64,000 bases of DNA from Staphylococcus phage LY01, in the sequence record OR836606.1, one strand, 5' to 3'. The position numbers and the translations under genes were made by a program. The notes beneath the pieces were generated by a model. It saw only the letters and a list, made by a program, of their open reading frames with translations. It did not search any database and was not told the DNA's origin. This document shows positions 50,690 through 51,050 of this stretch, in pieces (positions within the stretch are counted from its first letter, which is position 1; every line of letters starts with the position of its first letter).

Positions 50690-50860
50690 ACATTTAATAA
50701 TATACAATTAGACTATATTTTCATCCTATAAAGGAGATTTCTATTTAGTCGTTGAACAGTTATTTTAATCTGATGCTGATTATCTTAATAAAGACTTTCC
50801 AGCAATTAAGAAAGATTTTTCTTTCACATTTCTGTAAAAGGAGGCTACAACAATTAACCT
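50690..50860 (-). ncRNA. mini group I intron (family copy, tandem pair member 2)
   Basis: P 50798-50810, Q 50772-50782, R 50744-50758, S AATATAGTCT 50710-50719 (rc). Confidence 0.55.
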
Positions 50861-51050
50861 CTTAACGTGTAAATCATTTATGTTAATCTATATAAAATTC
50901 ATATAGATCAGACTATATCTTCTTATTCATATATTTAGTCGTTGAACATTAATTTTAATGATGCTGATTAAGATAATAATCTATTCCAGCAATTAATATG
51001 ATTTTAGTTGAACAAAAATTATCCAACTGGAACTTTATATCTAGTTCTCA
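50861..51050 (-). ncRNA. mini group I intron (family copy, tandem pair member 1)
   Basis: P 50984-50996, Q 50961-50971, R 50934-50948, S 50910-50919 (rc). P9-like hairpin GATCTATATGAATTTTATATAGATT. P begins only about 28 nt after the upstream ORF stop, so the 5' splice site lies inside the annotated ORF end. Confidence 0.55.

Follow-up and report, generated by a model that had tools for sequence, protein, structure and literature searches.

Organisation of the interrupted gene

The window analysed here is the whole 64,000-nt stretch of the Staphylococcus phage LY01 genome (OR836606.1), and all positions refer to it. Its GC content was 26% and its source group was that of the AR9/PBS1-like Staphylococcus jumbo phages. 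Two annotated ORFs on the minus strand, 51019-52680 and 50326-50634, were resolved into a single gene with three predicted exons and two predicted introns. Exon 1 (51021..52680) comprised 553 codons and the first base of codon 554 and ended in ...CCA GTT GGA T (...CCAGUUGGAU at 51021), as delimited by the ORF list and by collinearity with UFV_DC4 and SA1. Intron 1 (50875..51020) was identified with RF00028 and a family covariance model as an ORF-less group I intron of 146 nt without P2 and P8. It was followed by an 18-nt micro-exon (50857..50874) of sequence ATTTACACGTTAAGAGGT (as AUUUACACGUUAAGAGGU), which carries the codons (Y)LHVKR(L). Intron 2 (50691..50856), also an ORF-less group I intron, had 166 nt with P1, P2 (GAAA loop), P3 to P8 and a vestigial P9. 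The last exon, exon 3 (50326..50690, stop codon included), was placed by collinearity with UFV_DC4 and SA1 and by codon comparison. No sense-strand ORF was found inside intron 1 or intron 2.

The micro-exon serves both introns, as 3' exon for intron 1 and as 5' exon for intron 2, and its last 5 nt form the exon strand of intron 2 P1. The first 8 nt of exon 3, TACAACAA, pair as P10 with intron 2. The amino acids encoded by the micro-exon were those of the intronless alleles with different codons, and the UFV_DC4 allele had exactly 18 nt between the two flanks, as in the window. In silico removal of both introns joined 52680-51021 to 50690-50326 and produced a 680-aa protein, which was collinear, residue for residue across the junctions, with the uninterrupted homologues of UFV_DC4 and SA1. 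The UFV_DC4 protein has 677 aa; the window product was identical to it through the junctions, reading ...RYKVPVGYLHVKRLQQLLSKKNAYSLDASTRSMKT..., and matched it through ...RYKVPVGYLHVKRLQQLLSKKNAY.... The predicted junction-spanning stretches were VPVGYLHVKRLQQ and VPVGYLHVKRLQQLLSK.

The 3' splice site of intron 1 after AAAUG (50875) restored the frame and the intronless sequence. Another candidate 3' site, after UAUAUAG (50889), was discarded, since splicing there would create a stop at once (GGA TAT TAA). Exon skipping, from the 5' site of intron 1 to the 3' site of intron 2, would be in frame but would delete YLHVKR; since this segment is invariant in all relatives, skipping was not considered a productive route. 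Between the first junction and ATG 50634, a stretch of 26 codons, the window had 15 codon differences with UFV_DC4 and 13 with SA1, all of them synonymous. No Shine-Dalgarno sequence was found before ATG 50634, while the next gene downstream has AGGAG. The sole terminator-like hairpin followed exon 3, at 50305-50275; promoter-like sites were not enriched, and no terminator was found within the intron region. The lack of non-synonymous changes, the missing Shine-Dalgarno sequence and the position of the terminator after exon 3 only therefore indicate that the downstream ORF is an exon and not a gene. On this comparison, the annotated ATG 50634 is an internal Met codon.

These results agree well with the preliminary description, which had placed two back-to-back copies of one group I mini-intron family at 50690-51050; both were recovered on the minus strand with RF00028 and the covariance model. 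It had also noted that no stop interrupts the reading frame between the second S element and ORF 50326-50634, and this frame was found open up to a point just 3' of that element. It had placed the start of the first P element about 28 nt after the annotated stop, and the 5' strand of P4 was located 28 nt after it (50991-50986). Its proposal of a true 5' splice site inside the annotated ORF end was borne out by the predicted site within the stop codon itself (GGA T/AA), as the annotated TAA of ORF 52680-51019 consists of the last exon base and the first two bases (AA) of intron 1. In addition, the joined exons gave in silico one continuous protein with homologues (UFV_DC4, SA1), and the search for a ribosome-binding site belonging to 50326-50634 itself returned no Shine-Dalgarno sequence, as given above.

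Identity of the host gene

As judged from its homologues, the host gene is the virion RNA polymerase (RNAP) beta subunit and not a generic zinc-ribbon protein. The earlier label of a zinc-ribbon protein gene was right insofar as an N-terminal CxxC...CxxC exists, but this is only a small part of the protein and the gene is that of virion RNAP beta. The closest records to the gene were Madawaska (89% identity over the gene), then UFV_DC4, PALS_2, MarsHill and S6. The orthologues of Madawaska, MarsHill and Machias are labelled 'viral RNA polymerase beta subunit', after gp077 of AR9, which is a subunit of the virion RNAP. In the spliced protein, the 194 C-terminal residues aligned to residues 1193-1315 of E. 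coli RpoB (E 5e-4, phmmer against PDB), with VGYLHVKRLQQLLSKKN paired with a 17-residue RpoB stretch and NMEASALKAIGA over GEMEVWALEAYGA of RpoB. The match of Pfam RNA_pol_Rpb2_7 to the spliced protein was weak (E 0.025) and under the cut-off. Both introns lay within codons of the conserved VGY...K...GEME segment, the window residues being VGY-LHVKR-LQQLLSKK.... From the RpoB alignment, the introns are therefore placed in codons of the conserved C-terminal catalytic-cleft segment, and the N-terminal zinc ribbon is incidental. The host RNAP beta gene is presumably essential, so that its interruption must be repaired.

Intron structure

All pairings are on the minus strand. In intron 1, P1 had 8 bp (AGUUGGAU / GUUCAACU), with its exon strand at 51028-51021 in exon 1 and its guide at 51013-51006. 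P3 (UCAUAU / AUAUGA) was located at 51001-50996 / 50932-50927, P4 at 50991-50986 / 50967-50962, P5 at 50982-50979 / 50974-50971, P6 at 50960-50955 / 50952-50947, P7 at 50940-50936 / 50915-50911 and a P9 of about 9 bp at 50908-50901 / 50893-50886, and the terminal G was at 50875. P10 was weak, with about 3 bp at best. P8 was absent, with about 5 nt between the 3' strand of P3 and J8/7 and with the 57-position P8 block of RF00028 deleted. The same absence of P8 was found in the Madawaska, Machias, AH12 and PB50 copies and in the MarsHill gyrB copy.

In intron 2, P1 (GAGGU / GCCUC) was located at 50861-50857 / 50845-50841, with two further pairs into the intron, and P2 with its GAAA loop at 50838-50833 / 50828-50823. 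P3 was at 50813-50809 / 50742-50738, P4 at 50804-50799 / 50779-50774, P5 at 50795-50791 / 50786-50782, P6 at 50772-50770 / 50759-50757, P7 (GACUA / UAGUC) at 50750-50746 / 50715-50711 and P8 (UCCU / AGGA) at 50735-50732 / 50727-50724, with the terminal G at 50691. Only about 20 nt followed P7, which leaves P9 vestigial. The P10 guide (50853-50846) formed a perfect 8-bp P10, UACAACAA with UUGUUGUA, contained in an 11-nt perfect inverted repeat (50680-50690 / 50846-50856).

In both introns a U.G pair closed P1 at the 5' splice site, and both terminated in ...AAAUG with its terminal G. Intron 2 had the full set of core helices including P8 but intron 1 did not, and on these pairings intron 1 is an atypical, reduced group I variant. 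As the tetraloop of P2 docks on P8 in introns of the Azoarcus type, the joint loss of P2 and P8 in intron 1 would be structurally coherent. No characterised active group I ribozyme is known to be without P8, and intron 1 may therefore need a protein cofactor. The MFE fold recovered P1, P4/P5, P7 and P9 for intron 1 and P1, P2, P4/P5, P7 and P8 for intron 2, each with z = -3.4. The MFE fold of intron 2 put the 3' splice site within a 9-bp hairpin, which counts against the model.

Rfam matches and the mini-intron family

In sensitive mode over 1.5 kb, RF00028 aligned end to end with 50690-50865 (-) with 48.0 bits (E 9.6e-11) and 50888-51030 (-) with 20.6 bits (E 0.015), both below its gathering score of 50 bits. 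Rfam at default or gathering thresholds and an E-value scan over the whole window reported nothing, and the RF00028 matches emerged only when short sub-windows were searched. The shortfall was due to missing peripheral and P8 positions and not to core mismatches. The motif set UUAAUUGCUGGAA ... AAUCAGCAUC ... GUUCAACGACUAAAUA ... GAUAUAGUCU, corresponding to group I P, Q, R and S, occurred twice in succession after the TAA. The 15-mer TTCAACGACTAAATA was found 8 times without mismatch, each time on the minus strand of the window; with up to 3 mismatches, 18 matches were found against 6.8 expected, a number reached by none of 100 shuffles.

A family covariance model (CM R1) was built from 12 cores and used in place of the first core regular expressions, which had missed the Machias, AH12 and PB50 copies and almost all IMG/VR copies. 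It scored intron 2 with 105 bits and intron 1 with 97 bits (cores 50700-50822 and 50900-51009, respectively) and across the window it gave 8 copies, each on the minus strand and with 96-112 bits. The other six cores were located at 27337-27462, 40401-40522, 40600-40719, 40801-40920, 40983-41107 and 60035-60153. Ten more copies were found in the Madawaska, AH12, PB50 and Machias loci. Intron sizes in the family ranged from 146 to 194 nt, where the non-coding part of Bastillevirinae phage introns is given as 350 ± 108 nt (PMC11878797). Every copy examined interrupted coding sequence: in the window that of RNAP beta, of beta' and of an HNH gene, and in a relative that of gyrB.

Among 21 family members, 92% of the cells were paired compared with 31-48% for slid partners. 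Double-sided changes occurred at 15 pairs in these members and none of 500 shuffles reached the observed values, a count taken from a model-fitted alignment in AT-rich sequences, which inflate chance pairing. P4 and P7 were invariant while P3, P5, P6 and P8 covaried (18-21 family members).

Orthologues and the insertion hot spot

Intron 1 had orthologues in Madawaska, Machias, AH12 and PB50, the Madawaska intron being 95% identical and at the same site. Orthologues of intron 2 were found in Machias, AH12 and PB50, and these three phages had both introns with the same 18-nt micro-exon. Exon and guide changed together between orthologues. At site A, the window exon ...AGUUGGAU faces the guide GUUCAACU and the Machias exon ...GGUUGGGU faces the guide GCUCAAUU, so that the change of GGA to GGG is compensated in the guide. 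At site B, the 3' exon UACAACAA and guide UUGUUGUA of the window correspond to UACAACAG and CUGUUGUA in Machias, with the change of CAA to CAG again compensated. The P2 stem also changed between orthologues with the GNRA loop kept.

Introns 1 and 2 were 68% identical to each other, and each was 64-77% identical to other family members. Local duplication was rejected as the origin of the pair given this low identity, and as the two introns are no closer to each other than to the family, they were taken as separate insertions. In a blastn search of 50,697 phage records, matches over most of the length of either intron were found only in five Staphylococcus jumbo phages (9-29 places per genome), and neither intron had a match in UFV_DC4, PALS_2, S6 or SA1.

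Insertion sites are given as amino-acid coordinates of the spliced protein. The window, Machias, AH12 and PB50 had introns at sites 553/554 and 559/560. Madawaska had introns at site 553/554 and 35 nt beyond it; the second of them, again P8-less, was 86% identical to the first and carried a new guide sequence. Site 561/562 held an ORF-less group II intron in PALS_2 (L006 3207-3787; RF00029 65.9 bits, group-II-D1D4-5 45.5 bits) and a 1.9-kb insertion with a 436-aa ORF in S6 (L004 about 4204-6121). Both of these are annotated as hypothetical proteins only. A mini-intron was found at site 582 in Machias and AH12 and an endonuclease-bearing intron at the same site in MarsHill and PB50, and the AR9 introns were at sites of about 582 and 620. 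Overall, six insertion sites fell within about 70 codons across the relatives and were occupied by mini group I, endonuclease-bearing group I as well as group II introns, which depicts a battleground of homing elements in an essential gene. Intronless alleles differed at synonymous positions beside the sites, for example with C for the required U at -1 of site B, and such differences would fit either co-conversion in homing or an exon adapting to P1. The P8-less form was also found in MarsHill gyrB, at the Toprim DxD codons, with a compensated P3. Its occurrence in at least three sites of presumably essential genes argues that it is spliced.

Other introns in the window

The preliminary description had counted the present gene as the second with a tandem array of the same ribozyme, and four copies were indeed found at 40375-41145 (-). 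These four tandem mini group I introns, of 184, 177, 153 and 185 nt, interrupted the beta-like gene of the non-virion RNAP within its homologous segment, HLKLKH...RIGEMET. The micro-exons between them, by comparison with the intronless UFV_DC4 rpoB, were of 9 nt (CCATCAGGT), 44 nt and 19 nt. No canonical U.G 5' splice site was found for the first intron of this array, where G and not U precedes the site, and the second intron had a P1 of 3 bp only. A fifth insertion of about 1.4 kb was found in the same gene at 41671-43111 (-). It contained a 370-aa ORF (41825-42937) with a weak DUF559/Vsr-like match, and a 3' group I half at 41735-41805 weakly matched the family model; on these features, a group I intron carrying an endonuclease is probable.

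A 178-nt mini-intron of the family at 60009-60186 (-) lay inside the HNH/NUMOD4 homing-endonuclease-like ORF 60168-60530, after ...NLCWV, and the intron thus interrupts an endonuclease gene. Another member at 27337-27462 (-) lay between the beta'-like ORF 27475-28485 (...RVILNRKMG) and ORF 27014-27232 (MGADYDGD), just upstream of the beta' catalytic DxDGD motif.

An insertion of 2,000 nt at 53609-55608 (-) split the gyrA gene exactly after ...KLSDG and before DIPLNIF..., with the exons ending at 55609 and starting at 53608. The insertion held a group I ribozyme (55141-55532, RF00028 29.9 bits, E 1e-5) followed by a 406-aa TnpB ORF (53824-55044) with the Pfam matches OrfB_IS605, Cas12f1-like_TNB and HTH_OrfB_IS605, and similar sequences (TTTGTTAAC) adjoined both junctions. 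The gyrA of the relatives was uninterrupted at this point. From its parts, the insertion looks like an IStron (a group I intron with a TnpB of IS605 type) located in a gene that is essential to this lytic jumbo phage, and it is possibly more novel than the tandem mini-introns. The N-terminal GyrA ORF at 55600-58362 (-) was far longer than normal; its counterparts in Madawaska and MarsHill are annotated as GyrA with an intein of LAGLIDADG type.

Similar cores in uncultivated huge phages

No copy of the exact whole P-Q-R core was found in IMG/VR. The shorter R...S motif was found there at no fewer than 120 loci (at least 120) on contigs of 200-400 kb, and the covariance model found 335 cores, of up to 87 bits, in 100 of those loci. 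These included P8-less cores and tandem runs of up to six, spaced 170-280 nt. Runs of five to six cores were found in the uncultivated huge-phage contigs L104 (10800-12400, -) and also in L086, L068, L090, L096 and L100, and the run cores and their 3' end (…UAUAUAGAUUAACG) were much like the Staphylococcus phage family.

Proposed mechanism and alternative explanations

We consider it highly probable (about 0.88) that two independent, ORF-less mini group I introns, 18 nt apart, interrupt catalytic-cleft codons of virion RNAP beta and would be removed by standard splicing. The analysis shows what the introns are and where they begin and end, that the exons are continuous, and that the pairings are conserved or covary; from the sequence features we infer that splicing occurs, that it is autocatalytic and by what route the introns spread. 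The RNAP beta gene would be transcribed as one pre-mRNA, in which each ribozyme would fold on its own P3-P7 core and pair its guide with the upstream exon bases (P1, with U.G at the cleavage site). Excision would proceed by guanosine-initiated two-step transesterification, with the 3' splice site chosen by the terminal G and P10, and splicing would remove the TAA made by intron 1 to give the 680-aa protein. The two introns would be separate insertions in an intron hot spot. As they carry no endonuclease gene, they presumably spread with help in trans, from homing endonucleases of co-infecting relatives, whether free-standing or borne by introns, with co-conversion of exon bases at the flanks, or by reverse splicing.

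An opposite reading of the locus, that of a split gene with dead intron relics as spacers, would have a 553-aa polypeptide ending at the TAA and a 102-aa one starting at ATG 50634. AR9-like phages naturally have their RNAP subunits encoded in several split genes (bioRxiv 10.1101/2020.12.14.422802), and the automatic annotation calls two ORFs. Nevertheless this is very unlikely, as ATG 50634 has no ribosome-binding site and the two polypeptides would be without the conserved YLHVKRLQQLLSKKNAYSLD segment. The micro-exon and the 57 nt before the ATG would be untranslated, yet they show no non-synonymous and 13-15 synonymous changes, and the catalytic core is invariant with P1 and P10 covarying with the exons. 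Even less credible is a non-intron repeat (a regulatory RNA, a terminator or attenuator, or a miniature transposable element) that resembles group I cores by chance. The presence of 8 copies in 64 kb, each on the coding strand, and the lack of an Rfam match at the curated threshold could be read in this way, but the U.G and terminal G boundaries delimit exactly 146 and 166 nt, whose excision restores the intronless frame and sequence. Moreover, every examined copy interrupts coding sequence, promoter-like sites are not enriched and no terminator lies inside.

Dependence on protein is a tentative but realistic alternative to autocatalysis. Both introns would be removed in vivo, and the reduced ones, above all intron 1, would not be autocatalytic but would need an RNA chaperone or a maturase-like factor from phage or host, or translation-coupled folding. 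Intron 1 is without P2 and P8 and intron 2 is nearly without P9, and 4 of the 8 genes confirmed as spliced in Bastillevirinae phages were spliced only in infected cells and not in vitro (PMC11878797). Against it, the P8-less form recurs at three sites or more (at least site A of vRNAP beta, another beta site in Madawaska and the gyrB of MarsHill), and its core is intact with P3 and P1 covarying between copies, which shows function but not the mode of splicing.

The preferred reading of two spliced mini-introns can be extended to a doubtful, broader one, in which intron 1 is autonomously self-splicing and the mini-intron family, common to Staphylococcus jumbo and uncultivated huge phages, is massed in catalytic-motif codons as homing-endonuclease armour. 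The mini-introns would then pile up in such codons because each insertion destroys a homing-endonuclease target and so protects in the competition between phages. If true, intron 1 would be the smallest natural group I ribozyme with a new minimal core architecture, and group I splice-site recognition would work on shared micro-exons of 9-18 nt.

Annotation with default tools, Rfam at its curated thresholds among them, overlooks these introns and yields a truncated 553-aa 'zinc-ribbon' ORF and a 102-aa orphan instead of one RNAP beta, and the same mis-annotation occurs at seven other places in the window. The family provides natural, evolutionarily validated deletions of P2, P8 and P9 of the group I core. 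Finally, tandem ribozymes sharing exons of 9-18 nt offer material on the minimal ribozyme and on how neighbours fold without interference.

Comparison with known systems

The nearest systems are Madawaska and Machias (MW349129, MW349128), where the same gene is interrupted at the same hot spot and the orthologous introns are already annotated as joined CDSs, that of Madawaska being joined from 3 pieces. Their exon junctions were predicted only by protein alignment to AR9 (Korn et al., bioRxiv 10.1101/2020.12.14.422802), and in the available part of that preprint no description was found of the intron class, structure, size or P8-less form. The second intron of Madawaska, which is P8-less, is located 17 nt further downstream than intron 2 of the window, with a 35-nt exon before it; in Machias, a third mini-intron is present at aa 582. 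For Staphylococcus phage introns in general, the literature searched yielded no description of their class, structure, micro-exons or P8-less form; the UFV_DC4 paper states that Rfam detects no introns in that genome. AR9 gp077 (YP_009282982), virion RNAP beta-like, has two introns that interrupt the same conserved C-terminal segment, one of them annotated as group I with an HNH/VSR endonuclease. However, these are at about aa 582 and aa 620 and not at sites A and B, measure about 316 nt and 1.2 kb against 146-166 nt, and enclose no micro-exon. Compared with a mobile intron with a homing endonuclease, the window introns lack the ORF, whereas MarsHill, PB50 and AR9 have endonuclease-bearing ones at neighbouring sites.

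In the gut 'Jug' jumbo phages, 2,513 group I introns with a mean of about 206 nt are reported in essential genes, and metatranscriptomes support the splicing of 37 of 76 predicted introns in three genomes (PMC12880540, Sci Adv 2026). As in the window, many of these introns are short and ORF-less, and the Jug genomes have stand-alone homing endonucleases; the host phylum, phage lineage and interrupted genes (terL, nrdD, DNA polymerase) are different (PMC12880540). No mention of tandem arrays, micro-exons or P8-less forms was found in the available portion of that account (PMC12880540).

Twort also has related ORF-less group I introns, several in one phage gene, with a potential for exon skipping like that of the window. 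The Twort introns are full-sized (>200 nt) with a full set of core helices. The Azoarcus pre-tRNA-Ile group I intron, of about 205 nt, is commonly named as the smallest of the self-splicing group I ribozymes that have been well studied. Both it and the window introns are minimal and without P5abc, and the GNRA P2 loop and P8 of intron 2 are the pair that docks in Azoarcus. The window introns are 40-60 nt shorter, intron 1 being without P2 and P8 and intron 2 without most of P9. Overall, the window pair extends a kind of intron already known in such phages, and its distinctive features are the 146-nt form without P2 and P8 and the shared 18-nt micro-exon.
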